Numbered from the stretch's first letter, positions 1 to 17,374 are shown. The stretch: DNA of 24,000 nucleotides from Candidatus Methanomethylicus mesodigestus (GCA_001717005.1 MAGS01000019.1:14978-38977), one strand, 5' to 3'. Translations and numbers: made by a program. Notes: generated by a model not told the origin, from the sequence alone.

Positions 1-2
1 CC

Positions 3-146
3 CTCGTGATGATCTTCGTGGGTCTGCTGATAGTCCGGCTTGACCTGGCGGCGGTCGGTTTCTTCTTCTTCATGCTCCTTCCGTTCACCAGCAATGCGCT
101 GGCAAATTCTTACTACTATACCTACCAAGGGAGGGCAAACAAATGA
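3..146 (+). CDS. C-terminal fragment of a small membrane subunit, MnhG/MrpG-like (5' end lies outside the window)
   Basis: Frame is open from the window edge to TGA 144-146. Translation is LVMIFVGLLIVRLDLAAVGFFFFMLLPFTSNALANSYYYTYQGRANK: hydrophobic, with a tail resembling the conserved MnhG C-terminus. The stop overlaps the next ATG (ATGA). Confidence 0.4.
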   Translation, partial: LVMIFVGLLIVRLDLAAVGFFFFMLLPFTSNALANSYYYTYQGRANK

Positions 147-397
147 TCGACGCATTCATGGTCATAGCATATGTGATGGTTATAGGCATAGCAATCGGCG
201 CCGTCGCCGCATTGCTCCAGAAGGACCTTCTGAGGGCCGCCTTCCTGAGCGGCGCCGAAAGCATCGCACTGGCTTTCCTCTTCCAGGCGCTACTGGCGCC
301 GGACCTCGGCCTCACTCAGGCCATCGTTGCAACGGTGCTCATGCCCGGCATAATCATCATTGGGATATTCAAGACGCGGAGGCATGAGGAAGAATGA
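143..397 (+). CDS. DUF4040 / MnhB N-terminal-like membrane subunit (MbhD/EhbD position)
   Basis: 84 aa with about 3 TM helices. Motif KDLLRAAFLSG...LLAPDLGLTQAIV matches the APDvALTq signature of DUF4040/MrpB-N. ATGA overlaps at both ends. Confidence 0.62.
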   Translation: MIDAFMVIAYVMVIGIAIGAVAALLQKDLLRAAFLSGAESIALAFLFQALLAPDLGLTQAIVATVLMPGIIIIGIFKTRRHEEE

Positions 398-768
398 TCG
401 AACTCAATCTGCAGTTCCTTAGCTTCATGGCTGCAGCGGTGCTTGTGGTTATCGGGCTGGGAGGCATGCTGTTCCTTGATAACCTGATAAAAAAGATAAT
501 CGCATTTACGCTGCTCTCCGACGGCGTCAACCTCGCTCTGGTAACCCTTGGTTACGTGGAGGGCGGGATAGTTTCGATACTCGAGCCAGGAACTTCCGGC
601 GCGGCATTCCCAACCAACGCCGTGTTGATCTTCGGGCCCGGCATTGTCCTGACCAACATCGTCATCGGAGTCAGCACGACCGCAGTGCTCGTTGCGGTGA
701 CGATGGTCCTTTACCAGAGGTATGGCACGCTTAAGGCGTCCAAGGTACTCAAGGGTGAGCGCAAATGA
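394..768 (+). CDS. MnhC/MrpC / NuoK-like membrane subunit
   Basis: 124 aa with 3 TM helices. The N-terminus (MIELNLQFLSFMAAAVLVVIGLGGMLF..NLIKKIIAFTLLSDGVNL) fits the NuoK/MnhC pattern. ATGA overlaps with both neighbours. Confidence 0.72.
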   Translation: MIELNLQFLSFMAAAVLVVIGLGGMLFLDNLIKKIIAFTLLSDGVNLALVTLGYVEGGIVSILEPGTSGAAFPTNAVLIFGPGIVLTNIVIGVSTTAVLVAVTMVLYQRYGTLKASKVLKGERK

Positions 769-2276
769 ACGAGTCCATATCAAACCTCTGGTCAATACCT
801 CTCTTCATAATCATCCCCATATTGGCTGCTATTCTGCTCAACGTCCTTTACAGTCGGAAGCGCGCGATAAGCGTGACCGCCGTCGTCTCCTCGCTGGCTC
901 TCATCGTTGTAAGTGTCTTGTCCCCATTCGGATTCCACTGGTTCACAGGGCAGCCTGCCGTCCTGCCTACCGGCGGATACACCTACAGGGCAGACCTGCT
1001 TGGCTGGAACCTCGCGTTAGAATATTACTATGGTCCCCTTCAGCAGATAGCCATCTTCCTCGCATCTGTGCTCCTGCTGTTCGTAGTCCTGATCGCGATA
1101 AACTCGCTCAAGAAGAACACCGGGACGTACATCTCGCTGCTATTCCTCACCTTCATGTCTGCTGCAATAGTCATAATGGTGAACGACTTCTATCACCTTT
1201 GGATCGGTGTAGAGATCGGTAGCCTGATAGTTGCAGGCGTGGTTCTGGCAACCGGAGAAGCCGTCAGCCAGAAGGCTGCGCTGAAGTATACCTTCTTCTC
1301 AGCCTTGAGCGGCGCCGGGCTGGCCATTGCCCTCGCCCTGATCTTGGGCGTCACCGGGTATGCAAACATCTCCGACGCGATAATCGCTATGCCGCTCAAC
1401 GACGCCTCGCTGGCAAGCGTCCTGTATGTCGCATTCGGCTTCACCGTCCTCTCTTGGATATACGCAGGCGGGCTCGCGCCGATTCATCCGCTGAAGGCTG
1501 ATGTATACGGCTCTGCATTCCCGCACGCAACCATCCTCCTGCAGACGCAGTCAAAGCTCATGCTAGTGGCGATCGGTCTCGTCATTCTCAGGCTCTTCGG
1601 CACTCTCCCGTTTGCGAAGGAGGTCATGCTCTCCGTGAGCGTCCTCACTATGATGATCGGCGTAGTCATGGCGATGCTACAGACTGACTTCAGATGGACG
1701 CTGGCCTACTTGATAGTGAGCCACAGCGGGCTGGTGACCTTGGGGATCTCTCTTGGGACAGTTCAGGGCATAATCGGCGGACTCTTCCAGGCCGTCAATG
1801 ACGTGGTCTACATGAGCGTCCTGCTGCTGGCATGCGAGGGGATCTACTACTTCGGTCGCGGGACTTCCATAAAGACCGTCAGCGGCATAGCTAAGCGTGC
1901 GCCATGGCTTGCTGTGGCTGCAATAATTGGCGCGTTCGCCGCATCAGGGGTGCCGCCATTCAACGGCTTCCAGAGCGAGATCATACTGATACAGGCGTCG
2001 CTCAACTATGGCATGCCTGAGCTGGCAATCGTGGTGTTGATGGTCAGCGTCACGACCTTCATTGCACTCTTCAAGGGCATCTACAACATATTCTTGAGGC
2101 CGGACGACGCTCCACAGGCGGGCGAGAAGCAGGGCATGCCTGTCCCGAGGATGCTTTACGTTTGCCTTGCCGCCCTGATCTTTATCACGATACTCTTCGG
2201 AGTATATCCGCAGCTAGCAATCAACTTCCTGAATGAGGCAGCACTTAAGGTGGTGTATATCCCGTGGGTTCCATAG
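765..2276 (+). CDS. MrpD/NuoL-M-N-like antiporter-type large membrane subunit
   Basis: 503 aa and polytopic (about 14 predicted TM helices). Size and position after the NuoK-like gene fit this family, as does the region WIYAGGLAPIHPLKADVYGSAFPHATILLQTQSKLMLVAIGLVILRL, which resembles the W.P.A..aP.P.SA...K.G.Y core. It is divergent from canonical NuoN. Confidence 0.8.
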   Translation: MNESISNLWSIPLFIIIPILAAILLNVLYSRKRAISVTAVVSSLALIVVSVLSPFGFHWFTGQPAVLPTGGYTYRADLLGWNLALEYYYGPLQQIAIFLASVLLLFVVLIAINSLKKNTGTYISLLFLTFMSAAIVIMVNDFYHLWIGVEIGSLIVAGVVLATGEAVSQKAALKYTFFSALSGAGLAIALALILGVTGYANISDAIIAMPLNDASLASVLYVAFGFTVLSWIYAGGLAPIHPLKADVYGSAFPHATILLQTQSKLMLVAIGLVILRLFGTLPFAKEVMLSVSVLTMMIGVVMAMLQTDFRWTLAYLIVSHSGLVTLGISLGTVQGIIGGLFQAVNDVVYMSVLLLACEGIYYFGRGTSIKTVSGIAKRAPWLAVAAIIGAFAASGVPPFNGFQSEIILIQASLNYGMPELAIVVLMVSVTTFIALFKGIYNIFLRPDDAPQAGEKQGMPVPRMLYVCLAALIFITILFGVYPQLAINFLNEAALKVVYIPWVP

Positions 2277-2587
2277 ACAGCTTGTATGATAAAGTGAAGC
2301 GGTTCGTAATCGAATTTACGTCAGGCAAGGGCACGTCAAGTGCCATGACCGGGTACATGACTGGCGAGCTACAGACCGTTGCATTTATCATGATCTTGGC
2401 GTCGTTCTTCAGGATCTTCTCTGTGCCTCTCGGGATTGTCTTGCTGGCAGCCGTGGTCGGCGCGCTCTTCTTCTTCGGCCCTATGATAAAAGCCATGGAG
2501 AGGGAGAACAGCAGCGGTCTGAACAGGGTCCTCTTCTGGGTCATGATTTACTTTGCCGTGATAATAGCCGTTACTCTTTGGGGCTGA
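2264..2587 (+). CDS. Small integral membrane protein of unknown function (hydrogenase cluster member)
   Basis: 107-aa ORF if the GTG at 2264 is used (13-nt overlap with the upstream gene). An in-frame ATG at 2345 would give about 80 aa. The C-terminal two thirds are hydrophobic helices. No motif was recognised and the start is uncertain. Confidence 0.5.
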   Translation: MGSIDSLYDKVKRFVIEFTSGKGTSSAMTGYMTGELQTVAFIMILASFFRIFSVPLGIVLLAAVVGALFFFGPMIKAMERENSSGLNRVLFWVMIYFAVIIAVTLWG

Positions 2588-2593
2588 TATAGC

Positions 2594-3469
2594 ATGGAAA
2601 GCAAAGCACTTAAAGGATCAAGGGGAATAATCGCCGTCATCGCATTGATGATCATATTCGTAGGGGTCTCCACCTCGCTTCTGCAACTCAACGGGAACGT
2701 GGCACGAGGCATAAGCCCCGAATACAACGCGCTAGCCCCATATGAGGCGCCCAACAACCTGGCGAGTTGGGTCTACGACTACCGCGGCTTCGACACGCTC
2801 ATTGAGACGGGCGTGATATACGTAGGCGCACTTGTCTCCGTCCTTGCCATAGGCAGGGGGATCGTACGCACAAAGGGCGTCGCAGAAGAAGCGCCGGTGG
2901 CACAGTCTAGCATGGATTTCCACGTATCCTCCCTTAACGTCATACTCAAGTACTTCGGCATCCCGGTGATCATCCTCATCGTCGCATACTCGCTGCTCGT
3001 GCTTACTGGCGCCGCGACCTCTGGAGGCGGAGGATTCCAGTGCGGAGTTATCTTCTCGTCCGCATTCCTTCTAGGGATGATATTCTATGGGAAGAAGAAC
3101 CCGCTCAATCTCAGCAAGAAGTTTCTCATAGGGATCGGCGGCTTTGGCTGGGCGCTGTATGCGCTGCTAGGGCTTCCGGGATACCTGGTTACGGGATACT
3201 GGCAGTACAATGTGGGCGCTGACCTCTGGTCATCCGGCCTGATCTCGGGCGTCAGCGGCATGTCTGCGGTCGTCCCGGACATCATGCGCCAGATATTCGG
3301 CGACCCGTTCAGGATTCTCCTTGTTCTGTCCGACGGCACCTACGCCTCTACGGCGGGCATAGTGCCGCTGATCAATATCGGCGAGGCATTCAACGTGATC
3401 GGCGCCATCGGTTTGATCTTCTTGGTGTTTGCTTACGGCTATACTGACGAGGAGGGCAAATCCAAATGA
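2594..3469 (+). CDS. MnhB/MrpB-like membrane subunit
   Basis: 291 aa. Contains YDYRGFDTLIETGVI (the MnhB RG.DTlgE motif) and TSGGGGFQCGVI (the MnhB PGGGF.gG motif), with multiple TM helices. Confidence 0.72.
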   Translation: MESKALKGSRGIIAVIALMIIFVGVSTSLLQLNGNVARGISPEYNALAPYEAPNNLASWVYDYRGFDTLIETGVIYVGALVSVLAIGRGIVRTKGVAEEAPVAQSSMDFHVSSLNVILKYFGIPVIILIVAYSLLVLTGAATSGGGGFQCGVIFSSAFLLGMIFYGKKNPLNLSKKFLIGIGGFGWALYALLGLPGYLVTGYWQYNVGADLWSSGLISGVSGMSAVVPDIMRQIFGDPFRILLVLSDGTYASTAGIVPLINIGEAFNVIGAIGLIFLVFAYGYTDEEGKSK

Positions 3470-3756
3470 TCGAGTTACAGCTCTTCCCTGCTCTCGCCGG
3501 CGAGGTCACCCCCATAGTGGTCGCATTCGTGTTGGGCATCCTCTTCGGCACACAGTTGCAGGGCAAGATATCCAAGCGCATGATTGGCCTGATCATAGGT
3601 CTAAGCATAATCGCTGCGGTCCTCTTCGAGGCGCCCATATTCACATGGAGCCTCTTGGCAGGCTTCATAAGCGAGCACATCAGCATCTCCGTGGCATTCG
3701 TGGCCGCCACAATCGGAATGTTCGTCGGAAAGGCGTTCAGGGGAGGGCGTGAATGA
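3466..3756 (+). CDS. Small integral membrane protein of unknown function
   Basis: 96 aa with about 3 TM helices. ATGA overlap with the upstream gene, and the stop lies 1 nt before the next ATG. No motif was recognised. Confidence 0.5.
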   Translation: MIELQLFPALAGEVTPIVVAFVLGILFGTQLQGKISKRMIGLIIGLSIIAAVLFEAPIFTWSLLAGFISEHISISVAFVAATIGMFVGKAFRGGRE

Positions 3757-3757
3757 G

Positions 3758-4198
3758 ATGTACTTGACGACAAGTGCCTGCACCAAGTGCGCAAAATGCT
3801 GGGAGGTCTGCCCAACTGATTGCATAAAGCATCCTGATGGCATACCATTCAGCTGCACGACTTGCGGCATCTGCGCTTCTGTCTGCCCCACGACAGCGAT
3901 AAGGAAGAACCGCTTCGGCGGCTACTACGTCGACAGGTCAAGGTGCACGCGCTGCGGGATGTGCGTAAAGCACTGCCCGTTCACATTTGCGAAGATCGTG
4001 AATGACAGGGTAAGAGGCATCTGCATCAGGTGCGGCAAATGCGTGGATGTCTGCCCAGTCAATGCGCGCATCGACATACTCAAGTCCGTCAAGCAGCCCA
4101 TCGACTATGCCGTGCTGCTCGAGGTTGCAACCCCTGAGCGACTCAAGGCGATCATCGAGGGCAAGCCGATAGAGATCAAAGCGGAGGCAACAAAATGA
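3758..4198 (+). CDS. Polyferredoxin with 4 predicted [4Fe-4S] motifs
   Basis: Four CxxCxxCxxxCP motifs: CTKCAKCWEVCP, CTTCGICASVCP, CTRCGMCVKHCP, CIRCGKCVDVCP. ATG 3758 is preferred over GTG 3749 because GGGGAGGG lies about 11 nt upstream. Confidence 0.85.
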   Translation: MYLTTSACTKCAKCWEVCPTDCIKHPDGIPFSCTTCGICASVCPTTAIRKNRFGGYYVDRSRCTRCGMCVKHCPFTFAKIVNDRVRGICIRCGKCVDVCPVNARIDILKSVKQPIDYAVLLEVATPERLKAIIEGKPIEIKAEATK

Positions 4199-5340
4199 CA
4201 GCGACTCAACCCGCAGCAACTGTCGCTCCTGCATCTGCGCCAGCTCCAGCGCCAGCAGCGGCACCGACGCCAGCACCGGCCCCTGCGCCAATCACCAAAG
4301 TTTCAAAGCGCAAGATCTACAGGGACATGTCAAAATGCATGCTCTGCGGAAGGTGCCGGAACATCTGCCCGACAAGCGCGATCAAGCTAGCCACAGATGA
4401 GAAGGGCGTTTGCACCAACTGCAACCTCTGCGCCGAGGTCTGCCCTGTAAAGGCAATCGACTCCTTCGAGGGCAAGATAAAGCCGGAGGAGATCGGGCTG
4501 CACTACACCAAGATGCAGTCCTACAATGACCGCAAGATCAAGATCAACTGCGTGAACTGCATGGAGTGCTACGAGCAATGCCCGGCTAACGCGATATACT
4601 ATGAGGAGGGCAAGCTGCTCATAAAGAAGGGCGACGCCGGGGCATCCATAATCAACTGCTCGCTCTGCTCCCTCTGCGCGAGGGCGTGCCCGACGAATGC
4701 GCTGAAGTTCGAGCTCAACCGGATAAAGCTCATACCTGACTTCTGTGTCCTGTGCGGGGAGTGCGTGAGGGTCTGCCCGACGCAGACCATGCGCCTCAAG
4801 GACCGATACCCTGAGGGCGCATGCGTCATGTGCGGAAGGTGCGTGAAGTCTTGCCCGGTAGGCGCGCTCTCCATCAAGCCTGTCTCTTGGAACGGGTCGA
4901 TCGAAGATGGCTGCATAAGGTGCGGGACCTGCAGCAAGGCCTGCCCCACATCTGCAATCACGTTCGATCCCACGACCATGGACAAGCCCGAGGTGGACCT
5001 CTCGAAGTGCATACTCTGCGAGATATGCGCGGCTGACTGCCCTGTCGACGCCATCAAGATCAAGTGCAATTTGCCTGAGAGGAAGCTGGAGAAGCACTCC
5101 ATAAAGATCAACCAGAGCCTCTGCGTGGGCTGCGGCCTATGCGTCGATGCCTGCAAGATCACCCTGAAGGGCGACCCTGCCATGTCCCTGAAGGACGGTC
5201 TGGCACAGGTCAATGAAATGAAGTGCATCGGGTGCGGCGCATGCGCCACCACCTGCCCTGCTGAGTGCATTAGGGTGGTCAAGATCTATGACAAGAAACG
5301 AGTGGCCGGACAGGCCAGCGATGTGGTGATACTGCCATGA
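4195..5340 (+). CDS. Polyferredoxin with 10 predicted [4Fe-4S] motifs and an N-terminal Ala/Pro-rich linker
   Basis: 381 aa. I counted ten CxxCxxCxxxC(P/K) motifs by eye. The first about 34 aa are low complexity (TATQPAATVAPASAPAPAPAAAPTPAPAPAP). ATGA overlap with the upstream polyferredoxin gene. Confidence 0.9.
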   Translation: MTATQPAATVAPASAPAPAPAAAPTPAPAPAPITKVSKRKIYRDMSKCMLCGRCRNICPTSAIKLATDEKGVCTNCNLCAEVCPVKAIDSFEGKIKPEEIGLHYTKMQSYNDRKIKINCVNCMECYEQCPANAIYYEEGKLLIKKGDAGASIINCSLCSLCARACPTNALKFELNRIKLIPDFCVLCGECVRVCPTQTMRLKDRYPEGACVMCGRCVKSCPVGALSIKPVSWNGSIEDGCIRCGTCSKACPTSAITFDPTTMDKPEVDLSKCILCEICAADCPVDAIKIKCNLPERKLEKHSIKINQSLCVGCGLCVDACKITLKGDPAMSLKDGLAQVNEMKCIGCGACATTCPAECIRVVKIYDKKRVAGQASDVVILP

Positions 5341-5831
5341 TTACCTTCCTGAGACTGATGTTGACCGGCGCGTACACGAACGCCCTGAGGATACTCGCAA
5401 AGGACGACCGCGCCACTAGCATGTCCATAAGGAACAGCATCCTTACCCTGAGCGTACAGCCAACGCCGACCGTGCTCGATGAGATGTGCATAGGCTGCGG
5501 CGGCTGCTACAACGTCTGCCCCACGAAGGCAATCGAGATGGTCAAGCTTGAAACCCCTGTGGAGGTGGTGGAGGGATACATGAAGGAGCAGGTCCCAAGG
5601 ATAGACCTGCTGAAGTGCATCTACTGCCTCAACTGCCACGACACCTGCCCGATCTACTCGATATTCGGCGAGGCAGCCCCGATCCACGCAAGGGACGTAG
5701 GGATGCCCCGCATGACCCTGCAGGAGGTCCTCAAGAAGCCCGTGAAGGCCCCTCCAGAGACGATAGCCGAGCTGAGCAAGCTGATACCCTCATCAACAAT
5801 CTCTATCATAACAGGAGGCAAGAAAGAGTGA
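5337..5831 (+). CDS. 2x[4Fe-4S] ferredoxin subunit, NuoI/HycF/EchF-like
   Basis: 164 aa. Two motifs, [12 protein letters not shown] and [12 protein letters not shown], are separated by a long spacer as in NuoI-type subunits. It sits directly upstream of the small subunit (GTGA overlap). Confidence 0.72.
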
Positions 5832-6277
5832 CGCTGAAGTCAACTTCCAGGAAGAAAGCCATACACGTTATGCTCTGCTACACCGGCGGGTGCAACGGCT
5901 GCGACATAGAAGTGGTCAATGCGCTCCTGTCGCCCCGATACGACCTCGAGCAGTATGGCGTCATGCTGACCTGGAACCCGAGGGAAGCCGACGTCCTGAT
6001 AGTCTCGGGCGTGGTCTCATGGCAGATGCTCGAGCCGCTCAAGAAGATTTACTCGCTCATACCCGAACCGAAGGCCGTCGTCGCCGTTGGCGCATGCGCG
6101 TGCAACGGCAACGTCTACAAGAACCTGGTCGGGGACATCAAGGTAAACGAGGATGTGTATGCCCCGGTCGAAAGCGTGATACCTGTCGACGTGAAGGTGC
6201 CAGGCTGCGCACCTCGCCCGGAGGAGATAATCCAAGGCGCAGTAAAGGGTCTGCCAAAGCTTATGGGGGCTCCATAA
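5828..6277 (+). CDS. Group-4 [NiFe]-hydrogenase small subunit (NuoB-like)
   Basis: Contains [13 protein letters not shown] (hydrogenase-type CxxC), AVGACACNG and [12 protein letters not shown] place the start at GTG 5828 (GGAGG at about 5814, GTGA overlap) rather than the track's ATG 5615, whose extra 71 aa lie inside the upstream ferredoxin gene. Confidence 0.9.
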
Positions 6278-6278
6278 A

Positions 6279-7460
6279 ATGACAGAAGCAAACAATGAAA
6301 AAATGATCGAAAAAGAGCTCTCTTTCGGGCCGGTCCATCCGGCGCTGATTGAACCTTACCGGATAAGGCTCTTCGTTAACGACGAGATTGTTGAGGACTG
6401 CGAGATAAACATAAACATGGCCTACCGTGGCATGGAGAAGCTCTTCGATGGTCTCCCTGTCGAGAAGGCGCTGCTGATCGCTGAGCGCGTCTGCGGCATC
6501 TGCTCGCACGTGCACGCTTGGAACGCAGTGAGGGTCATAGAATGCGGACTGGGGATAGAGGTGCCGCCTAGGGCCGACTACATACGCGTGCTCGTTCAGG
6601 AATTCCAGCGCATAACGAGCCACCTGATATTCTTCGGGCATGCATTCGAGGTGGTGGGGCACGAGACCCTCGCCATGCGCGCACTCCTGCTCAGGGAGCA
6701 GTTCATGGACCTTATGCAGTATGTTGGAGGCAACCGTGTCATGCCGTCCGTCCCTATCATCGGCGGCATAAGGCCGAGGGCGGATCTGACCGACAGCCTG
6801 AAGAAGACCATACTGGAGCGCTGCGATGCATTCGAGGCGAAGTATGCCCAGTACGTGCAGAGGATACTCGACGACCCTCTGGTCATCTCAAGGGTAAACG
6901 GCATAGGCCTGCTCACGAAAGAGGATGCGATAAAGTACCACGCGACCGGCCCTACCGGGCGCGCATCAGGATGGAGGTATGACCTCAGGACCGAAATGAA
7001 GGAATACAAGCCCTTCGACTTCAATGTCATAGTTCTCGATGGATGCGACACTAAGGATAGGGTCGTCGACCGCGCACTTGAGGTGCTTGAGAGTCTGAAG
7101 ATTATCCATCAGGTCGTAAAGAACCTGCCTGATGGCCCGGTTGTGAACCGGAATTGGGTCGCGAAGGAGATGCCCTTCACTACAGCCTACCTCGAAACCT
7201 ACCGCGGGGAGGTCATGCACACATACGGCCTGGATCACCAGGGTCTAGTGCGGAACTATCAGATACGCACGCCAACGATAACCAACCTAGCCGCGATGGA
7301 GCATGCCTGCGTGGGCGACCACGTGACCGAGGCAATACTCACGATTGCGAGCTGCGATCCATGCCTGACCTGCTGCACAAGGACGGAGGTCGTGGATTCC
7401 GGAAAGCGCCGAACCATGACTGATTATGAGATCGTAAGAAAGTATGGGTGGAGGAAATGA
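6279..7460 (+). CDS. Group-4 [NiFe]-hydrogenase large subunit (NuoD-like), all four Ni-ligand Cys present
   Basis: 393 aa. N-terminal RVCGICSHVH (Cys72/Cys75, nt 6492-6503) and C-terminal DPCLTCCTR (Cys362/Cys365, nt 7362-7373). 25 residues follow the conserved Arg. Confidence 0.92.
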   Translation: MTEANNEKMIEKELSFGPVHPALIEPYRIRLFVNDEIVEDCEININMAYRGMEKLFDGLPVEKALLIAERVCGICSHVHAWNAVRVIECGLGIEVPPRADYIRVLVQEFQRITSHLIFFGHAFEVVGHETLAMRALLLREQFMDLMQYVGGNRVMPSVPIIGGIRPRADLTDSLKKTILERCDAFEAKYAQYVQRILDDPLVISRVNGIGLLTKEDAIKYHATGPTGRASGWRYDLRTEMKEYKPFDFNVIVLDGCDTKDRVVDRALEVLESLKIIHQVVKNLPDGPVVNRNWVAKEMPFTTAYLETYRGEVMHTYGLDHQGLVRNYQIRTPTITNLAAMEHACVGDHVTEAILTIASCDPCLTCCTRTEVVDSGKRRTMTDYEIVRKYGWRK

Positions 7461-8512
7461 CAATGGACGCAACCATCCTCTTCTTGGCCCAGCTGATCGT
7501 CTCTTCCGTCATAGCGCTCGCGATCGCAACGCTCTACTCGCTGGTGCTTCCGGGAATCGAGCGGAAGATCCAGGCAAGGATACAGCAGCGCGTCGGTCCT
7601 CCGATACTCATGCCCGGCTTCTGGTCAGTGATCAAGTTCATGTACAAGGCGAGGACTGAGCCGATCGCTCAGATGCCCCGGTTCTACAAGTTCCTGATCG
7701 GCTTCGGTGTCGGGGTCGTCTCCCTGCTCTTCCTCTTCAATACGCCTTACTGGTGGTTCATGCTCGGGTGGGGCAGCATCTTGGGGATTGCCGGGATGCT
7801 GAAACTCGAGGAGGTCATTTATGTCTTCATGGGATCGCAGTCCCAGTCCATCATGTCGACCTCAATGCCCGTCCCGGACACCGTCAGGGGGTCCAAGTGG
7901 CCGAACATCCGCAGGGAGTTCAACGAGCAGCACAGCGCCGAGAGATCCCTCAAGATGATGCTGATAGGGTCCCTCCCGCTCTATCTGGCGCTCCTCGTCC
8001 CGTTCATAGTGGCGCAGAGCGTGAACATCGGCTCCGTCGTCGTGACCCAGAACCCTGCCTACTCCCCGTTCAACTCTTGGCTATCCTTCTCGCTGCCAAC
8101 CAGCCCCATACTCTTCACCGTCCCCGGCTTCATTGCAGCCATCGTATACTTCTTGGGATTCGTCGTGATGCTCAACGAGAAGCCCTTCACCATACTCAAG
8201 GCAAAGATCGACATGATCGAGGGAGGCGTTCTGGAGTACGCCGCCAACCTCAGGGCAGGATATTACCTGATGCGCAACCTGCTCATGTTCGCGCTGTCCA
8301 GCATATTCGTTACCCTCTTCCTTGGGATACCCTTCGACCCATTCATGCCCGCCATGTTCCTGATGAATATGGTCTTGAGCCTGATGCTGCCCATCGCCCT
8401 CTCTGTGCTCGTCGCGTTCTCGCCGATATTCACATTCAGGCAGATCTATCCGACCGCGATAGGGCTCTCTGCCCTTGGAGTGCTTGCAATGATACTTGCG
8501 CTCAGCATATGA
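7457..8512 (+). CDS. NuoH/HycD/EchB-like membrane subunit
   Basis: Contains LPGIERKIQARIQQRVGPP...FWSVIKFMYKA, the typical NuoH-family N-terminal signature, and is polytopic. I place the start at ATG 7457 (GGTGGAGG upstream, ATGA overlap); the track starts at GTG 7448. It has a hydrophilic insert, GSQSQSIMSTSMPVPDTVRGSKWPNIRREFNEQHSAERS. Confidence 0.85.
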   Translation: MTMDATILFLAQLIVSSVIALAIATLYSLVLPGIERKIQARIQQRVGPPILMPGFWSVIKFMYKARTEPIAQMPRFYKFLIGFGVGVVSLLFLFNTPYWWFMLGWGSILGIAGMLKLEEVIYVFMGSQSQSIMSTSMPVPDTVRGSKWPNIRREFNEQHSAERSLKMMLIGSLPLYLALLVPFIVAQSVNIGSVVVTQNPAYSPFNSWLSFSLPTSPILFTVPGFIAAIVYFLGFVVMLNEKPFTILKAKIDMIEGGVLEYAANLRAGYYLMRNLLMFALSSIFVTLFLGIPFDPFMPAMFLMNMVLSLMLPIALSVLVAFSPIFTFRQIYPTAIGLSALGVLAMILALSI

Positions 8513-8528
8513 TTGGTGGTTTGACAAT

Positions 8529-8792
8529 ATGCCAAGAATCGCAATAAGACCAAAAGCCGTGATTAACTTGGGAGGGTGGGTATGCGAACGCAAGCTGACC
8601 ATCCCCTACCGCGATTACGTTATAGGCAACCCGTTCGATGAGCCGGTGAAGATATCCTCGCCGATCTATACTATGGATGACATCAAAGCCATCGAAGACT
8701 TGGGGCTTATCGTTGAGCCGGTAGCCGCAACTGATCGGCTCGTGGACAAGCTGAACAAGGTGAAGGCATTAATCGAGACCAACTTGGCATGA
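8529..8792 (+). CDS. Small soluble protein of unknown function at the hydrogenase/ATP synthase junction
   Basis: 87 aa from ATG 8529 (GGTGG lies 9 nt upstream; the track's TTG 8496 overlaps the previous gene). Hydrophilic with no Cys motif. No family recognised. Confidence 0.5.
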   Translation: MPRIAIRPKAVINLGGWVCERKLTIPYRDYVIGNPFDEPVKISSPIYTMDDIKAIEDLGLIVEPVAATDRLVDKLNKVKALIETNLA

Positions 8793-8823
8793 TGCTCTTT
8801 TGAGCGGCTACGGGGGATTCCAG

Positions 8824-9123
8824 ATGCGGATCATCTTTGTCGGAAGCACCTTGCTTGCGGATGGCTACAGGATGGCTGGCGTGGAGCCCGTACCGGTAGC
8901 TACGCCCGACGAGATGCTGAGCGAGATCCAGCCCCTGTTGAGGCGCGAGGACGCCGGAATCATTCTTCTGGATTACGATTTCTCATCAAAGATCAAGGGC
9001 GATCTCGATAAACTACGGTCAAAGCGCGCGATGCCAATCCTCGTTGAAGTCCCGGGGAGGCATCTGTCCGCCGAGGTCGACCTAAAATCCACATTAAGCA
9101 AGATAATGGGTGTGAAGATGTGA
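8824..9123 (+). CDS. atpF: A-type (V-type) ATP synthase subunit F
   Basis: 99 aa. MRIIFVGSTLLADGYRMAGVEPV...DAGIILLDYDF...MPILVEVPG matches the AtpF pattern. ATG 8824 is preceded by GGGGGA. Confidence 0.8.
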   Translation: MRIIFVGSTLLADGYRMAGVEPVPVATPDEMLSEIQPLLRREDAGIILLDYDFSSKIKGDLDKLRSKRAMPILVEVPGRHLSAEVDLKSTLSKIMGVKM

Positions 9124-9725
9124 GCTCAATCAATGCATCCCAGTCTGATGGCCTCAAGCGTCTGATCGATGCGCTCTTCGAGGAGTCAAGGACTAAGGCA
9201 GAATCGGCGATCTATGACGCGGAGAGCAGGTCGCGTTCTATCCTGTCCGAGTCCGAGAAGTACTCGCTGAAGAAGGCCGAGGAGACGCTCAGTTCCTATG
9301 CTTCGATGGCAACGATTGAGTCTAGGAAGGAAGTCTCCAAGGCGGAGATCGAGGCTCGGATGTCGATGCTGCGCATGAAGAGCGACTACGTGGAGCGCGT
9401 CTTCGACGCTGCGAAGGTCCATCTTCTAGAATACACCGGATCCAAGGAGTACCTCTCGCGGCTTGCGAAGAGCATCCCCGCAGCAAGTGAGCGGATCGAT
9501 GCTGGCGAACTCCTCCTCAGCCAGCGTGACATCGACGCACTGGGAGCCAAGCTCAAGCGGATTGCCGGCAAGGGTGTGGCAGTCAGCCCCGCGAACATCG
9601 GGATAGGCGGCTTCATACTCGTCTCGAAAGACGGCAAGCTGTCGATCGACCGGACATTGGACGGCATGCTCTCCTCACAGAAGGAGAAGCTGCGCGGAAA
9701 AATTGCAGATGCACTGTTCAGGTGA
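9120..9725 (+). CDS. atpE: A-type ATP synthase subunit E (peripheral stalk)
   Basis: 201 aa. Charged coiled-coil N-terminal half and globular C-terminal half ending ...[12 protein letters not shown]. Position just before atpA. GTG start in a GTGA overlap. Confidence 0.75.
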
Positions 9726-11494
9726 TTCAGATGGCCATACAAGGAAAAATCGACAAGATTAGCGGCCCAGTAGTCCAGGCCGAGGGCGTATCGGGCCTGG
9801 AGATGCACGAGCTCACGATGGTTGGAGATGCCGAGCTCATAGGTGAGGTGGTGAGGATTGAGGGGACCTCTGCCACGATCCAGGTCTATGAGGAGACTGG
9901 CGGCCTCAAGCCCGGTGAAAAGGTGGTCGGGTCGGGCATGCCCCTGTCCGTCGAACTCGGTCCGGGTCTGCTGCAGAGCATCTACGACGGCATACAGCGA
10001 CCGCTGGACGTCATCAAGAATCTTACTGGCGACTTCATCGCTAGGGGCGTTAAGACGCCTGCCCTCTCGCGTACAGCGAAGTGGCATTTCGTTCCAACCG
10101 CGAAGGTTGGCGACAGCGTCATCGGCGGGGCGGTCTTGGGAACCGTACAGGAAACGCCTCTCTTCCAGCACCGGATACTTGTGCCGCCGAACGTAAGCGG
10201 AACCATCGCTGAGATCGCCGAAGAAGGCGATTACGTGATAGAACAAGTAATCTGCAGGCTGCGGGGGAAAGAGAAGGGCGTCACCGAACTGAAGCTTTAC
10301 CACAGGTGGCCGGTGAGGGAGCCGCGCCCTTACATCGAGAGGCTCGAGCCATCCGACCCGCTCATCACAGGCCAGAGGATCATCGATACCTTCTTCCCTG
10401 TCGCAAAGGGCGGCGCGGTCGCAATACCCGGCGGCTTCGGCACCGGAAAGACCATCACGTCGCACCAGCTTGCTGCATGGTCTGACGCAGAGATAATCGT
10501 CTACATAGGCTGCGGCGAGCGCGGTAACGAGATGACTGAGGTGCTTCTGACCTTCCCGGAGTGGAAGGACCCTAAGAGCGGAAGGCCGCTGATGGAGCGG
10601 ACCGTCCTGATCGCAAACACCTCAAACATGCCTGTCTCCGCGAGGGAGGCGAGCATCTACACCGGCGTGACTATCGCCGAGTACTTCCGCGATATGGGAT
10701 ACAACGTGGCGATCATGGCCGACTCCACTAGCCGTTGGGCCGAGGCCCTCAGGGAGCTCTCGGGGCGGCTCGAGGAGATGCCCGCCGAGGAGGGCTATCC
10801 ATCGTACCTCTCGTCAAGGCTTGGCGAGTTCTACGAGCGGGCGGGAAGGGTCAAGGCCCTCAATGAACAGCTGGGCTCAGTCACTCTCATCGGTGCAGTC
10901 TCCCCCCCTGGTGGCGACTTCTCGGAGCCGGTAACAGTGCACACCAAGCGGTTCGTCAGGACCTTCTGGGCCCTTGACAGCGCCCTCGCGAGCATGAGGC
11001 ACTACCCTGCCATCAACTGGCTCACCAGCTACTCTGAGTATACCGATTATGTCGAGAACTGGTGGAACGCCTTGACTAACGGGCTGTGGCGCCAGAGCAC
11101 GATCAAGGCAATGGACGTCCTGAAGAGGGAGGACGACCTCAAGGAGGTGATCAGGCTGGTGGGATCCGAGTCGCTGCCTGAGAACGAGAAGCTCGTGATG
11201 GAGGTCGCCAGGATGCTCAGGGAGGGCTTCCTGCAGCAGAATGCTTACGACCCTATAGACACCTACTCCTCGCCTGAGAAGCAGTTCAAGCTGCTCACGG
11301 CGATACTCTCGTTCTACGAAAATTCCACTAAGGCCGTATCTAAGGGCGTGCCCGTCTCGCGGATCATGGCGCTGCCCTCGCTCGCGGACATCTTCAAGCT
11401 CAGGATGTCCGTCCCGGGTGACAAGATCGACCTCATTGACAAGACTATCAACAAAATTAACTCCGACCTCAGCTCATTGGAGGGTAAATCCTGA
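9722..11494 (+). CDS. atpA: A-type ATP synthase catalytic subunit A
   Basis: 590 aa. P-loop PGGFGTGKT, plus [35 protein letters not shown] and [11 protein letters not shown]. Normal length, so no intein. The start is GTG 9722 or ATG 9731. Confidence 0.97.
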
Positions 11495-12873
11495 TGACCG
11501 ACTCAATAGAATACCGTGGAGTGCACAAAATCAGCGGCCCCCTCATATTCGTGGAGGGCATCACGGGCGTTGGATTCAACGAGCTGGCCGAGATCAGGGG
11601 CGATGACGGCGAGACCCGGCGCGGGAGGGTCCTCGAGATATCCTCCGGCGTCGCTGCCGTCGAGGTATTCGAGGGCACAACAGGCCTCTCGACCACATCG
11701 ACATCCGTGAAGTTCCTTGGCAGGCCGCTCACCATACCCCTCTCGACCGAGATGCTCGGGCGCGTCTTCAACGGCCTGGGCGAACCGGCAGACGGCGGCC
11801 CGGTGCCATTCACAGAGGACTACAGGGACGTCAACGGGCTGCCCATGAATCCGTACTCACGGGACTACCCGACGCAGTTCATACAGACCGGCGTCTCGGC
11901 GATAGACGGCATGGACACACTCGTCAGGGGGCAGAAGCTGCCAATATTCTCCGGCTCAGGTCTTCCGCACAACCTGCTCGCCACGCAGATCGCAAGGCAG
12001 GCTACGATCAGGGGCGAGAAGGAGGGCTTCGCTGTGGTATTCGCCGCGATGGGGATCAAGCACGACGAAGCCGCCTTCTTCAAGAGGAGCTTTGAGGAGT
12101 CGGGCGCGCTGAAGAACTCCGCCATATTCCTCAACCTGGCAGACGACCCCGCAGTCGAGCGTCTGGTAACGCCGAGGAGCGCACTCACGCTCGCGGAGTA
12201 CCTTGCGTTCGAGCAGGACATGCACGTCCTGGTTGTCATAACCGACATGACAAACTACGCGGAGGCGTTGAGGGAGATCAGCGCGGCAAGGGAGGAGGTG
12301 CCCAGCAGGAAGGGCTACCCCGGATACATGTACAGCGACTTCGCATCCATATACGAGCGCGCGGGGAGGATCAAGGGCAGGAAGGGGAGCATAACGCAGA
12401 TGCCCGTCCTCACGATGCCCAACGACGATATCACCCACCCCATCCCTGACCTCACCGGATACATCACCGAGGGCCAGATCGTGGTCGACAGGGACCTCCA
12501 CAGGCGGGGCATATACCCTCCGGTCAACATCCTGCCGAGCCTCTCCAGGCTCATGAAGGACGGCATCGGCAAGGGCAAGACAAGGGAAGACCACGGCCAG
12601 GTGACGAGCCAGCTCTACTCGGCCTACTCCAAGGCGCAGGAGCTCCGGTCGCTCAGCGCCATCATAGGCGAGGAGGGCATGACCGACAAGGACCGGGACT
12701 ACCTCAAGTTCGGGGAGGCATACGAGCAGCGCTTCCTCAGGCAGAAGTTCGACGAGAACCGGACCCTCGAGACGACCCTTGATCTGGCGTGGCAGATGCT
12801 CTCTGTTCTGCCCGAGTCCGAGTTGTCAAGGATATCTGACAAATACGTGAAGGCATACTACAAGAGATCATGA
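11494..12873 (+). CDS. atpB: A-type ATP synthase subunit B
   Basis: 459 aa. Contains [53 protein letters not shown] and [21 protein letters not shown]. The ATG shares 1 nt with the atpA stop. Confidence 0.97.
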
Positions 12874-12893
12874 TGGTTGCGGAGTGAATCCCC

Positions 12894-13523
12894 TTGTCTA
12901 CGAAAGCCGCCCCCTCGAAGATGAACCTCATACGCTTCAGGAGGACCCTCTCCTTCCTCAGGCGGGCGCATGACCTGCTGGAGGAGAAGCGGGACATCCT
13001 GCTGCTGGAGGTCAGCAGGCGCCTCGGGGAGGCGACAAAGGTCAGGGGGGAGCTCAACGCCGTACTGAAGAGCGCCTACGCATCGCAAGATGCCGCGGCC
13101 ACCGCGGTGGGGACCGACGAGCTGAAAAAGATATCCGAGTCTCCAATCGCGACTTTTCAGGTCAACGCCTCAAACAAGAAGATAATGGGCGTGACAACCT
13201 TAGCGCTTGAACTGACGGATCTTAAGCGGTCCCTCACATACAGCATATCTCGACCGACCGTCCTCATAGACGACGCCGCCGAGAAGTTCCTCGAAGCGAT
13301 ACCCGTGATCGTCAGAGTAGCCGAGCTCGAGAGCACCCTCATCAATCTGGTCGAGGAGGTCAAGAGGACGCAGAGGCGCATAAACGCGCTCGAGCAGTTT
13401 CTGATACCCCGGTACGAAGAGACTGTCCTGCTGATAGCGGGCATCCTCGAGGAGAGGGACAGGGAGGAGTTCGTCAGGGTCAAGAAGGTAAAATCCTTGA
13501 TAGAGAAACGAGCACAAAGGTGA
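12894..13523 (+). CDS. atpD: A-type ATP synthase subunit D (central stalk)
   Basis: 209 aa. The N-terminus PSKMNLIRFRRTLSFLRRAHDLLEEKRDILL fits the AtpD PTR..L..lk..l..a..g..LLk.Kr pattern. TTG start with GGAGTG 8 nt upstream; alternative ATG at 12921. Confidence 0.85.
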   Translation: MSTKAAPSKMNLIRFRRTLSFLRRAHDLLEEKRDILLLEVSRRLGEATKVRGELNAVLKSAYASQDAAATAVGTDELKKISESPIATFQVNASNKKIMGVTTLALELTDLKRSLTYSISRPTVLIDDAAEKFLEAIPVIVRVAELESTLINLVEEVKRTQRRINALEQFLIPRYEETVLLIAGILEERDREEFVRVKKVKSLIEKRAQR

Positions 13524-13528
13524 CCTAG

Positions 13529-14061
<533 letters not shown>

Positions 14062-14077: not shown

Positions 14078-16039
14078 ATGCTACGCCCGGTAGGAATGTC
14101 GCACGCTTCCGTCATTTTTCTAAAGTCTGACGTTGAGGAAGCGATGAGCACTCTTAATTCCTACGGGGCGTTCCATCTCTCCCTAAAGGAGATCGAGGGG
14201 CAGAACCCCTCACAACTGATCGAGAGGGCACAGGACCTCGGCAACAGGGTGAAGGATCTCTTAGGCAGGGCAGCATCGATACTCGGGGACTCCCCTTCAG
14301 ATGCAGGGCGCGGCGCTCCAGTCGTCTCTCAGGAGTGGGGTGCACTCTTCGACCAGATCGACTCGGAGCTTGGCCCATATGAAAAGGAGGTCCGGTCCAT
14401 CGAATCGGTCGTCAGCCGCCAGCACCAATCGCAGTCGGCGCTCCAGGCATGGAAATCCATCTCCGCAGAGTTGGATGGGATATCCGGCCTAGACTCTCTC
14501 CCCGAGTTCAGGAGGCTGAAGCTCCTCTTCCTTGCTCCCAAGGGCGCCTTGGAGGCGAAGGTAGAACCTGAGCTCCCCAAGGAGGCGCTTCTGGTGCACC
14601 GGTTTGCGGCCGTGCCGGTCTTCCTTGTGGCGTGCAGGAGCGGGGACGAGGCGGAGGTGCTCCACGCCGCAGAGGAGTCCGAATTCAAGCAGCTCGACAG
14701 AATTGATGGCATGCCAAGCAGGCTAGGCGAGCTCGCGCAGTTCCTGTCCAAGTTCGAGTCCGATCTGCAGTCCGAGTCAGTGCGGAATGAGGCGTCGATA
14801 AAGTCGCTGCGCCGCATAAAGCCTAGGATAGACTATTTCTCAACCGTACTCTCAGACGCAAACGCCGTCCTTGACATCAAGAACAGGTCTGCGATCGAGA
14901 AGAACTGGGCTATGATCGAGGGGTTCGTGCCGACCAAGAAGGTCGAGCCGCTCAACAGGGCGCTCTCGGAGAGCCTCGGCGGGCGGTTCATACCATTCAT
15001 CAAGGTCGAGAGGGACGCGCCGCAGACGCCGGTGACCTATCACTACCCCAAATTCCTCAGGATCTTCGACTCGATAACAAACCTATACGGGACGCCATCC
15101 TACAACGAGATAAACCCGACGCCCATACTCGCGGTGACCTTCCCGCTCTTCTTCGGCCTCATGTTTGGGGACCTGGGGCACGGGCTAGCCCTGGCCGCCA
15201 TCGGCGCATTCATGTACAAGAGAGTGAAGTCGATGAGGGGCATCGGGCACGTCCTCATGATCGCGGGGCTTGCGGGCGCGCTCGTAGGCGGTCTATTGTA
15301 TGGCGAGGTCTTCGGAAAGGCGATCTCCAACTATCTGCCCTACCATGCGCCCCTCCACATCCCGGAGGGCGAGGCCGAGTTTCTGTCGTACCTGATGCAG
15401 ATCATCAAGCTGACCCTCTTCATAGGCATAGGCCAGATCTCTCTGGGGCTGGGCCTATCCATAGCGAACAACTTCATCCAGCGTAAGTGGGCCGAGGCGT
15501 TCCTCGTGAGGGTCCCCAAGCTTCTGTTCTACTTCGCCCTCATGTATGTCGTCTTCACAACCCGCCTGGAGATCATGACGTGGTTCGACGGGCCTATCTA
15601 CCTCATTCTGGCGCCCGTCCTCTTCCTGCTGCTCGCCTCGCCGATTTACGCCATGGTCAAGCATGGGAGGCGCGAGGGGCTGGGCCATCTGGGCGAGATG
15701 GGGTTCGACCTCTTCGAGACCGCAATCGCATTCACGTCAAATACCGTCTCTTATCTCCGAATCTTCGCAATGGTAATCGCACACATCGAGCTCATGGCAG
15801 TCTTCTACAGCCTCGCGGCGATGACTGCCGGCGCGCAGTTCGGCTTCCTCTTCTCGGGGCTTCTCATCGTGGCCGGCAACATCTTCGTCGTGCTGCTTGA
15901 GGGAATTTTGGCGCTTGCTCAGGACCTGAGGCTGCACTTCTACGAGTGGTTCAGCAAGTTCTACCAGGACAGCGGGGTCCGGTTCTCGCCGTTCAGGCTC
16001 GCGCTGGGCGTGCCGGTCTCAAAGAAGGCTGCCCAGTGA
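14078..16039 (+). CDS. atpI: A-type ATP synthase subunit I (a-subunit, stator/ion channel)
   Basis: 653 aa. MLRPVGMSHASVIF is the typical MLRPe.Ms N-terminus. Soluble N-terminal half of about 330 aa and polytopic C-terminal half with YLRIFAMVIAHIELM (the conserved Arg helix). Confidence 0.9.
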   Translation: MLRPVGMSHASVIFLKSDVEEAMSTLNSYGAFHLSLKEIEGQNPSQLIERAQDLGNRVKDLLGRAASILGDSPSDAGRGAPVVSQEWGALFDQIDSELGPYEKEVRSIESVVSRQHQSQSALQAWKSISAELDGISGLDSLPEFRRLKLLFLAPKGALEAKVEPELPKEALLVHRFAAVPVFLVACRSGDEAEVLHAAEESEFKQLDRIDGMPSRLGELAQFLSKFESDLQSESVRNEASIKSLRRIKPRIDYFSTVLSDANAVLDIKNRSAIEKNWAMIEGFVPTKKVEPLNRALSESLGGRFIPFIKVERDAPQTPVTYHYPKFLRIFDSITNLYGTPSYNEINPTPILAVTFPLFFGLMFGDLGHGLALAAIGAFMYKRVKSMRGIGHVLMIAGLAGALVGGLLYGEVFGKAISNYLPYHAPLHIPEGEAEFLSYLMQIIKLTLFIGIGQISLGLGLSIANNFIQRKWAEAFLVRVPKLLFYFALMYVVFTTRLEIMTWFDGPIYLILAPVLFLLLASPIYAMVKHGRREGLGHLGEMGFDLFETAIAFTSNTVSYLRIFAMVIAHIELMAVFYSLAAMTAGAQFGFLFSGLLIVAGNIFVVLLEGILALAQDLRLHFYEWFSKFYQDSGVRFSPFRLALGVPVSKKAAQ

Positions 16040-16088: not shown

Positions 16089-17036
16089 TCAAATCAGGTA
16101 GCTCTGGACCAGGCTCTTCTGGTCCACGCCGCGCTCGATGGCATTCGCAACCCTGATGAGGTTGCCGACCTCGTTGGACTTCAGCTCCAGGTATCCGAGG
16201 ATCGCGCCGATCTCCCCGTAACCTTTGTAGTAAGCCCTCTGCAGCTGTGCTGCTATCCTCTTCTCGTACTCCCTCTCGAGCTCCCTGGGCGTCTCTGCCT
16301 TGGGGACTCCTTTGCCCTCCAGATATGCGAATGCCTTGGCTTGGGTGCCTGCCTTGAGCGCCTCCACGAGTTCCGCCCTCCTGAGCGCCCCCTCTTTCAC
16401 CAGGAGCACCTCCTCAATGGCCTTGGGATCTATGCCGTTCTTCAGCCCCCTCAGAATCGTGACGACGTTGTAGAGGTCGACCTTGAGCCTCAGGTAACCC
16501 AGAAGCGGCTCCCCCTCCCCCTTCATCCCCTCAAGGAAAGTTGCCAGCTTAATGAGCCTGCACCTTACGAATACCGACTCGATAAGCGCAGGGACCGGAT
16601 GCTTCGCATACAGTTTCTCGGCGGCCTCCGCCTCCTCGCCGTACCCCATCCTCTTCAGCGCCTTGAGCGCATCCTGCTTGCCCTGCTTCTTCAGCGGAGT
16701 CTTCACCTGGGCCTCGCCTATTACCCCCAAGTGCCACTTCAGAAGCTCCACCGCCTCTCCCTCCTGCGCCTGCCTCTTGATCAGCGTGAAGAAGTCTGCC
16801 GCCTCCGGGGTGACCTTCGCGAACTCGTCAACCTCCTTGAAGAAGCCCTCCTTCAGGACCGCCTCATACTCCACGAGGTCCGCAGACGCATTGGCTAGGT
16901 CGGGGTAGTTTGGCTTGATCCGGTTGATCACGTCCTTCAGTTCCTTCTGCGAAGCCAGCTCCATAATCTGCTGCTCTGTCAGGAGCTTCCCCTTACGCCC
17001 CGACGCCTTGACGGCAGCATACGTGAAGTCCGGCAT
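16089..17036 (-). CDS. atpC: A-type ATP synthase subunit C (d-type rotor/stator coupling subunit)
   Basis: 315 aa from ATG 17036 (GGAGGAG upstream; the track's longer 337-aa form starts inside atpH). Helical protein whose C-terminus ELKSNEVGNLIRVANAIERG fits the conserved AtpC E..E..Nlr motif. Confidence 0.78.
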   Translation of the reverse strand: MPDFTYAAVKASGRKGKLLTEQQIMELASQKELKDVINRIKPNYPDLANASADLVEYEAVLKEGFFKEVDEFAKVTPEAADFFTLIKRQAQEGEAVELLKWHLGVIGEAQVKTPLKKQGKQDALKALKRMGYGEEAEAAEKLYAKHPVPALIESVFVRCRLIKLATFLEGMKGEGEPLLGYLRLKVDLYNVVTILRGLKNGIDPKAIEEVLLVKEGALRRAELVEALKAGTQAKAFAYLEGKGVPKAETPRELEREYEKRIAAQLQRAYYKGYGEIGAILGYLELKSNEVGNLIRVANAIERGVDQKSLVQSYLI

Positions 17037-17041
17037 TCTGC

Positions 17042-17374
17042 CTACTCCTCCTCGGTCGAGCCCATGCTGCTCGCAGTTGCCTTGACCACGTCGTCGACGC
17101 ACGAGTCGAAGTTCTTCTTCGCCTTCGCCTCTGCATCGGCAGCCCTGTCTCTGCCATCCTTCATTATCTTCGAGGCCTCCTCCTTCGCTTCCGCCACCTT
17201 CTTTGAGAGCATGGCCTCTCCCGCCGCCTTGGCCTTTGAGCTCAGGTCAGACTCTATCTTACGGCTCTCGGCCTCTGCAGCCTTGACCAGCTCCGCTGCC
17301 TTCTCCTTCCCTTCAGCCTCGATGCCATCCGCCGCAATCTCCGCCTCTTTCAAAGCCTTCAATACTTTGTCCAT
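17042..17374 (-). CDS. atpH: A-type ATP synthase subunit H (peripheral stalk coiled coil)
   Basis: 110 aa. Ala/Glu/Lys-rich coiled coil (MDKVLKALKEAEIAADGIEAEGKEKAAELVKAAEAESRKIE...). Size, composition and adjacency to atpC fit archaeal AtpH. Confidence 0.68.
   Translation of the reverse strand: MDKVLKALKEAEIAADGIEAEGKEKAAELVKAAEAESRKIESDLSSKAKAAGEAMLSKKVAEAKEEASKIMKDGRDRAADAEAKAKKNFDSCVDDVVKATASSMGSTEEE

Follow-up and report, generated by a model that had tools for sequence, protein, structure and literature searches.

An Ehb-type hydrogenase cluster is inserted ahead of the A-type ATP synthase genes in Methanomethylicaceae and is probably co-transcribed with them

Ehb, the energy-converting hydrogenase of Methanococcales and Methanobacteriales, is encoded by ehbA-Q. 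In Pyrococcus furiosus, the Mbh hydrogenase and an A1AO ATP synthase make up a 'simple respiration', and fdh-mfh-mnh clusters occur in Thermococcus onnurineus. The A1AO ATP synthase operon of Euryarchaeota has the canonical order atpHIKECFABD. The locus described here lies in a stretch of 24,000 nt from Candidatus (Ca.) Methanomethylicus mesodigestus (GCA_001717005.1, MAGS01000019.1:14978-38977), hereafter the window, in which genes of an Ehb-type hydrogenase (ehb) run directly into genes of an A-type ATP synthase (atp) on the plus strand. The family concerned, Methanomethylicaceae (Methanomethylicia, formerly Verstraetearchaeota, Thermoproteota), comprises methanogens outside Euryarchaeota of which relatives were recently cultured.

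Besides Ehb, genomes of this family encode an Fpo/Hfo-like complex as a second candidate ion pump, which has been described for Ca. Methanomethylicus (PMC7886697). M. petrocarbonis, a relative that is in culture, uses H2 to reduce methanol or monomethylamine (PMC12244365). In another methyl-reducing methanogen, Methanosphaera stadtmanae, Ehb is described as harvesting reduced ferredoxin as a sodium gradient (PMC7485788), and a similar role in ferredoxin oxidation was proposed for Ehb of Methanofastidiosa (PMC7302380). No mention of ehb-atp co-location or co-transcription in this lineage was found in the searchable literature, and an earlier description may still exist. What is unusual here is the operon architecture, that is, a complete ion-pumping hydrogenase ahead of the atp genes that is retained family-wide, while the parts themselves are well known.

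The sequence-only reading of the window had described 19 consecutive plus-strand genes between positions 3 and 13523, ending at the atpD stop, as one transcription unit with a largest gap of 31 nt. The ORF (open reading frame) listing returned the same 19 genes, 17 of them with Pfam support (the exceptions are two small ones), and placed the largest gap at 8793-8823, between ehbP (8529-8792) and atpF (8824-9123). Overlaps of the ATGA/GTGA kind or of 1 nt occur at eleven junctions (143, 394, 765, 3466, 4195, 5337, 5828, 7457, 9120, 9722, and 11494) and the remaining gaps up to atpD measure 1 (3757, if the ferredoxin gene fer4a starts at ATG 3758), 1 (6278), 6, 16, and 20 nt. This number of overlaps and these gap lengths agree with the earlier reading, with a single 13-nt overlap at 2264 to be added. 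The proposed limits of the unit gave way at both ends. As 13524-13692 holds a conserved gene, atpK and atpI also belong to the same-strand array, which ends only with the atpI stop at 16039 and counts 22 genes within the window, with 31 nt still the maximum gap. Each of these 22 genes is preceded by a Shine-Dalgarno-like motif. Upstream, comparison with related loci places the start of ehbA ~1.2 kb before window position 1 and adds four more ehb genes, and the full array from ehbA to atpI comprises 25 genes over ~17.3 kb.

Predicted co-transcription of the hydrogenase genes and atpFEABD across the 31-nt gap is well supported by the short spacing, the conservation of the junction, the insertion at the promoter spacer of an outgroup, and the lack of promoter or terminator signals at the gap. 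The earlier view of a transcriptionally coupled hydrogenase and atpFEABD was thus upheld as a prediction, while its restriction to the A1 head was not: as atpK and atpI follow in the array, the coupling would extend to the membrane subunits c and a.

Related loci were gathered via AtpF, EhbN, and AtpD homologues and by scanning one genome per GTDB species. In every Methanomethylicaceae contig that reaches beyond ehbP, atpF follows directly. The junction, for which a search of related genomes had been suggested, is present in all informative family members, covering 8 out of 8 informative GTDB species representatives and further metagenomic lineages. EhbN identities span 72-98% among the family members that carry it, and those of AtpF reach down to 40%. 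The ehbP-atpF gap measures -1 (L027, a TAAATG overlap), 4, 5, 8, 9, 16, 19, 22, 25, 29, 30, 31, 39, and ~27 nt (L104). In five lineages it amounts to -1 to 9 nt, which leaves no room for a terminator there. Gap sequences are not conserved, and the T4 run of the window is missing in its nearest relatives. The junction itself was found on 10 out of 10 contigs listed (23 read) that come from different samples and encode an identical AtpF, so an assembly artefact is ruled out.

Outside the family, the Ehb cluster ends at ehbP and is followed by unrelated genes. No atp gene occurred within 10 kb in the 13 non-family Ehb loci examined, which comprise two deeper Methanomethylicota (L021 and L022) and eleven others from Methanofastidiosa, metagenome-assembled genomes (MAGs) of Thermococci, Altiarchaeota, Hadarchaeota, and one unclassified archaeal MAG. 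In L021 and L022, the gene after ehbP encodes a ribosomal protein or lies on the opposite strand.

The origin of the arrangement can be read from an outgroup locus (L103, Methanomethylicota archaeon; AtpD 42% identical) that lacks ehb. It shows minus-strand proS and an MJ0043_C gene, a spacer, atpF-E-A-B-D-small ORF-K-I, and convergent atpC-atpH-trmI. The spacer before atpF is 202 nt long with 37% GC and carries TTTAAA/TTAAAA boxes. In two family members (L019 and L020), the pair of proS and MJ0043_C lies immediately upstream of ehbA in divergent orientation, and in L024 the MJ0043_C orthologue lies upstream of ehbA; these orthologues share 51-53% identity. As both flanks are alike and the 17-gene ehb block is the sole difference, the arrangement is most simply explained by insertion of ehb downstream of the atp promoter region and directly ahead of atpF, presumably in the ancestor of Methanomethylicaceae. 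This implies that atpF lost its promoter-bearing spacer through the putative insertion. The order F-E-A-B-D-x-K-I and the separate trmI-atpH-atpC operon are shared with the outgroup and predate the insertion.

Taken together, it appears likely that ehb was inserted before atpF, that ehb and atp have formed a polycistronic unit since, and that Ehb supplies the gradient to the ATP synthase. In the family ancestor, the 17-gene cluster would have come to lie between the atp promoter spacer and atpF. A promoter upstream of ehbA, ~1.2 kb outside the window, would then drive ehbA-P, atpF-E-A-B-D, and the small ORF, and read-through would most likely proceed via atpK and atpI to 16039.

The distribution of promoter and terminator signals is consistent with such a unit. 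Operon starts in this lineage carry TATA-like boxes 30-55 nt before the start codon. These were seen upstream of ehbA in L019 (GTTATAAATT), L020 (GATATATAAATT), and L024 (TTATTAATA), and in the window before the Hfo-like operon (TATATAA at 18794) and the acylphosphatase gene (TTTTTTATA at 18336). On the sense strand of 3-13523, none of the nine TATA-like hexamers scanned for was found, against 7.1±3.0 expected from synonymous-codon shuffles (zero in 3 out of 1000, 0.3%) and 11.8±4.0 from mononucleotide shuffles. Over 3-16039, one T5 run (14115) was counted on the sense strand where 4.9±2.2 would be expected, and T4 runs number only three, one of which lies in the ehbP-atpF gap. Real terminator regions carry two or three T5-T6 runs, such as 18676-18711 and, on the minus strand, 16064-16078 with two T5 runs downstream of the atpC stop. 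No oligo-T terminator (T5 run) was detected at the ehbP-atpF junction, and the gap sequence was as quoted before, with a single T4 run and no TATA-like element. Of three AT-rich spacers earlier contrasted with this gap, 18153-18383 and 18660-18834 do hold TATA-like boxes and T5-T6 runs, while 13524-13692 is coding. RNA folding of 8760-8850 gave no structure beyond shuffles (z = +0.44). Rfam at gathering thresholds gave no match in the window or L024, and ARAGORN found no tRNA in the window. A bacterial sigma-70 and intrinsic-terminator scan of the window was disregarded because the host is an archaeon.

Apart from the junction, the depletion of TATA-like hexamers and T runs on the operon sense strand has the appearance of selection against unwanted starts and early termination. 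Before ehbA of Ca. M. oleisabuli (L024), a 539-nt intergenic region (2006-2544) is GC-rich at ~2200-2380 and gave no Rfam match. An argument that contrasted leaderless first genes with internal genes led by Shine-Dalgarno motifs was dropped because ehbA in the relatives also has a Shine-Dalgarno-like leader.

Several points weigh against a single ehb-atp unit that is powered by Ehb. The TATA scan is a nine-hexamer heuristic, uncalibrated on mapped promoters of this lineage, and internal start sites within coding sequence are common in archaeal operons and are missed by simple motif scans. The longest gaps in the family (22-39 nt) belong to the clade of the window, and the T4 run in the window gap (8798-8801) is one of three on the sense strand in 16 kb, so that partial termination in this gap is possible. 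Since the sole TATA hexamer (13655) precedes atpK and the outgroup L103 also has a box there, the unit is probably not single-promoter over its whole length. Ehb is not necessarily the only or main coupling site either, because the Fpo/Hfo-like complex is also encoded.

Alternatively, the two gene sets could be adjacent yet independent, with a promoter inside the ehbO/ehbP coding sequence driving atpFEABD, most ehb transcripts stopping at the junction, and the arrangement being a neutral relic of insertion. A housekeeping ATP synthase usually has its own promoter, which speaks for such independence together with the longer gap, the T4 run, and the frequency of internal starts in archaea. The sense strand of 3-13523 is devoid of TATA-like hexamers, however, and the 3' half of ehbP showed no excess synonymous-site conservation when tested for a hidden promoter: the identical share of informative codons across five species is 0.07-0.27, compared to a whole-gene baseline of 0.24, and between species the AT-rich codons towards the 3' end of ehbP are free to change at synonymous positions. 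The five lineages with gaps of -1 to 9 nt have no space for a terminator, and the 202-nt promoter spacer of the outgroup has been lost. Independent transcription is therefore considered unlikely, and a polycistronic ehb-atp unit is retained as the preferred reading. Translational coupling at the ehbP/atpF junction, which had been raised as a possibility, is itself unlikely in this species owing to the 31-nt gap and to a Shine-Dalgarno-like GGGGGA of atpF's own.

The conserved gene in 13524-13692 is a previously unannotated small ORF that may encode an extra ATP synthase subunit. In 12 out of 12 related loci examined, the outgroup included, an ORF of 42-60 aa lies between atpD and atpK. The alignment of ten loci is near gap-free, with an acidic/Lys-rich heptad-like pattern and an invariant Tyr and Lys, and pN/pS among close relatives is 0.31-0.42. 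The small ORF had no match in Pfam, NCBIfam, or PDB and no profile similarity to AtpH. By its position it presumably resembles the small gene that separates the D-like gene from the c gene in the Sulfolobus ATPase operon.

This ORF also contains TATAAA at 13655-13660, 38 nt before the atpK ATG and the sole sense-strand TATA-like hexamer in 1-16100, which may supply extra starts for atpK-atpI. There is a fair possibility that the unit is composite, with ehbA to the small ORF on one transcript and atpK-atpI transcribed mainly from this box, which would raise the supply of the multi-copy c subunit. The TAT/AAT-AAA codons at this site are retained in all relatives at similar spacing to atpK, and the outgroup has a 58-nt intergenic gap before atpK with the TATA-like box AAATATATATG. 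In L020 the largest gap of the unit also precedes atpK (36 nt), and in L019 a gap of 59 nt set by the gene caller disappears when an upstream TTG is taken as the atpK start. An extra start would fit the many c subunits per enzyme. On the other hand, the motif falls within conserved Tyr/Asn-Lys codons, so that protein constraint alone could explain its retention; the gaps flanking the small ORF are just 5 nt in the window, and no terminator-like T run lies ahead of atpK.

The hydrogenase is, as judged by its sequence, an Ehb-type group-4 energy-converting [NiFe]-hydrogenase, an assignment based on the Ni-Fe cysteines, EhbP, the MJ1308-type protein, and EhbN as the nearest named relative. The window holds the 3' end of the MnhG-like gene and 13 more genes of the complete 17-gene cluster (ehbA to ehbP). 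EhbN carries the two Ni-Fe binding CxxC motifs, L1 near the N-terminus (RVCGICSHVH) and L2 at the C-terminus (DPCLTC), and C72, C75, C362, and C365 are invariant in an alignment of 12 sequences. Outside the family, its matches named 'energy-converting hydrogenase B subunit N' share 46-54% identity, compared to ~32-37% for Ech- and NuoD-type proteins. Within the family, EhbN shares 89% identity with its counterpart in Ca. Methanomethylicus oleisabuli V3 and 78-80% with those of Methanosuratincola, including M. petrocarbonis. The antiporter-like subunit has NF004920 EhbF as its clearly best match (E 2.8e-113), at 379 bits under the curated cut-off of 578.

Under the preferred reading of a polycistronic ehb-atp unit, energy conservation would follow from known methanogen biochemistry. 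The archaea of this family form methane by H2-dependent reduction of methyl compounds. In methyl-reducing methanogens that lack cytochromes, soluble Mvh/Hdr would make reduced ferredoxin, Ehb would oxidise it to H2 while pumping Na+ or H+, and the ATP synthase would spend the gradient; a single operon could thus deliver the ion pump and the consumer of its gradient together. The sequences show the gene content, the spacing, the retained junction, the history of insertion, and the lack of promoter and terminator signals; the transcript itself, the working direction of Ehb, and the ion used are what we infer here. Ehb of Methanococcus maripaludis is an anabolic, ferredoxin-reducing enzyme, and the genes could be co-transcribed with Ehb spending the gradient, as in hydrogenotrophic methanogens, to reduce ferredoxin with H2, so that the operon pairs a gradient consumer with the ATP synthase. 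A second candidate coupling complex, the Fpo/Hfo-like one at 18835-24000, would leave room for this. Against it, reduced ferredoxin in methyl-reducing methanogens comes from Mvh/Hdr and has to be oxidised somewhere, and Ehb was proposed as the site of this oxidation in Methanosphaera (PMC7485788) and Methanofastidiosa (PMC7302380). An anabolic Ehb is held to be rather improbable.

More speculative still, and given very little weight, is the notion that the whole chemiosmotic ATP-making machinery comes from one ~17-kb, 25-cistron message that selection has maintained since the insertion for a fixed Ehb:ATP synthase ratio, perhaps even with assembly of the two into a physical supercomplex in which the small ORF product could be a lineage-specific subunit or adaptor.

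The features of the locus are listed in Table 1. A span of 9.3 kb carries the genes for all nine A1AO subunits (A, B, C, D, E, F, H, I, and K). Pfam recognised F, E, A, B, D, K, I, and C, and the best NCBIfam matches for H fell under the cut-off. Instead of the canonical atpHIKECFABD, the plus strand reads F-E-A-B-D-small ORF-K-I, and H and C follow trmI on the minus strand. The genes trmI-atpH-atpC form a tight minus-strand operon (gaps of 1 and 5 nt) convergent with atpI, and all relatives and the outgroup are alike in this. Transcription of atpH and atpC is separate and on the opposite strand. AtpK, with 122 aa, carries a ~55-aa hydrophobic N-terminal extension ahead of the usual two-helix hairpin, and its tblastn matches to several relatives start at residue 1.

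Table 1. Coordinates of the ehb and atp genes and associated features in the window
Feature	Position	Strand	Evidence or remark
MnhG-like ehb gene, 3' end	3..146	+	160 aa in relatives (L001 gene 841-1323); weak PhaG_MnhG match
ehb membrane subunit, MbhD family	143..397	+	PF13244, E 9e-14
ehb membrane subunit, NuoK/MnhC-like	394..768	+	PF00420
EhbF-like MrpD/NuoN-type antiporter subunit	765..2276	+	PF00361; best NCBIfam match NF004920 EhbF
ehb small membrane protein, MJ1308 family	2264..2587	+	PF27305 on identical protein
ehb membrane subunit with MnhB domain	2594..3469	+	PF04039
ehb small membrane protein, 96 aa, no family	3466..3756	+	kept in all relatives
ehb 4Fe-4S ferredoxin subunit	3749..4198	+	Pfam; start possibly ATG 3758
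ehb polyferredoxin, ~10 Fer4 motifs	4195..5340	+	Pfam
ehb 2x[4Fe-4S] subunit	5337..5831	+	Pfam
[NiFe]-hydrogenase small subunit, NuoB-like EhbM	5828..6277	+	PF01058
[NiFe]-hydrogenase large subunit EhbN	6279..7460	+	PF00374, PF00346; Ni-Fe cysteines C72, C75, C362, C365
NuoH-like membrane subunit EhbO	7457..8512	+	PF00146
EhbP, final hydrogenase-cluster gene	8529..8792	+	PF10622, 58.8 bits vs cut-off 27
ehbP-atpF gap	8793..8823	+	T4 8798-8801; Shine-Dalgarno-like GGGGGA 8812-8817
atpF, A-type ATP synthase subunit F	8824..9123	+	PF01990
atpE, peripheral-stalk subunit E	9120..9725	+	PF01991
atpA, catalytic subunit A	9722..11494	+	Pfam; gene callers choose ATG 9731 as start
atpB	11494..12873	+	Pfam
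atpD, central stalk	12894..13523	+	PF01813
Conserved 52-aa coiled-coil ORF of atp operon	13529..13687	+	5-nt gaps either side; Shine-Dalgarno-like motifs
atpK, c subunit/proteolipid, N-terminal hydrophobic extension	13693..14061	+	PF00137, residues 59-118
atpI, a subunit, final plus-strand array gene	14078..16039	+	PF01496
atpC, subunit C/d, convergent with atpI	16089..17036	-	Pfam
atpH, peripheral-stalk subunit H	17042..17374	-	best matches NF006256/TIGR02926, under cut-off
trmI, GCD14-type tRNA methyltransferase, first gene of trmI-atpH-atpC operon	17376..18152	-	

The region 18835-24000 encodes a second group-4 complex with NuoA, B, C, D (hydrogenase-type CxxC), H, and I-like genes and small downstream membrane ORFs, and corresponds to the Fpo/Hfo-like complex of Ca. 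Methanomethylicus. An acylphosphatase gene lies between trmI and this complex. In the species of the window (L004) and in L017, the complex lies 2.8 kb from the ATP synthase genes, and in L011 and L012 the acylphosphatase gene is followed by a small ORF and an AsnC-type regulator instead.

That ehb is retained ahead of the apparent atp operon of the family, in the place of the former promoter spacer, points to a one-to-one tie between the expression of Ehb and that of ATP synthesis. If they form one unit, the levels of ehb and atp mRNA should change in parallel. The locus offers a clear example of how a housekeeping operon can capture a large respiratory module, and the gene set of the archaeal ATP synthase operon grows by a conserved small gene that had lacked annotation. 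As the parts are known and fit accepted bioenergetics, this is a useful refinement rather than a surprise.

Compared to Ehb of Methanococcales and Methanobacteriales, the cluster shares EhbN with Ni-Fe cysteines, a NuoB-like small subunit, a NuoH-like EhbO, EhbP, an EhbF-like MrpD subunit, MnhB/E/G-like subunits, and a polyferredoxin, with EhbN identities of 46-51% to named Ehb homologues. It differs from known Ehb in that the EhbF match falls under the NCBI equivalog cut-off, in that three ferredoxin-type subunits are present, and in that atp genes follow the cluster after -1 to 39 nt. Compared to the archaeal A1AO operon, the nine subunits are shared, while the gene order differs, an extra 42-60 aa coiled-coil ORF lies between atpD and atpK, and the operon's own upstream spacer would have been lost through the ehb insertion.

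Among the 80 group-4 hydrogenase loci returned, hydrogenase and atp genes were otherwise neighbours only in Methanospirillum MAGs (L071 and L095), in which a few kb separate an Ech-type hydrogenase from the atp operon. A group-4 hydrogenase near an A-type atp operon is thus common to both; in Methanospirillum, however, the two are on opposite strands and therefore not co-transcribed. With Mbh of P. furiosus, the locus would share the logic that a ferredoxin-oxidising, H2-evolving, Mrp-related hydrogenase builds an ion gradient for an A-type ATP synthase. In T. onnurineus, the long clusters join a hydrogenase to an ion-handling module. While hydrogenase and ATP synthase are encoded in separate operons in Pyrococcus and Thermococcus, their genes are contiguous in Methanomethylicaceae and apparently served by one promoter.

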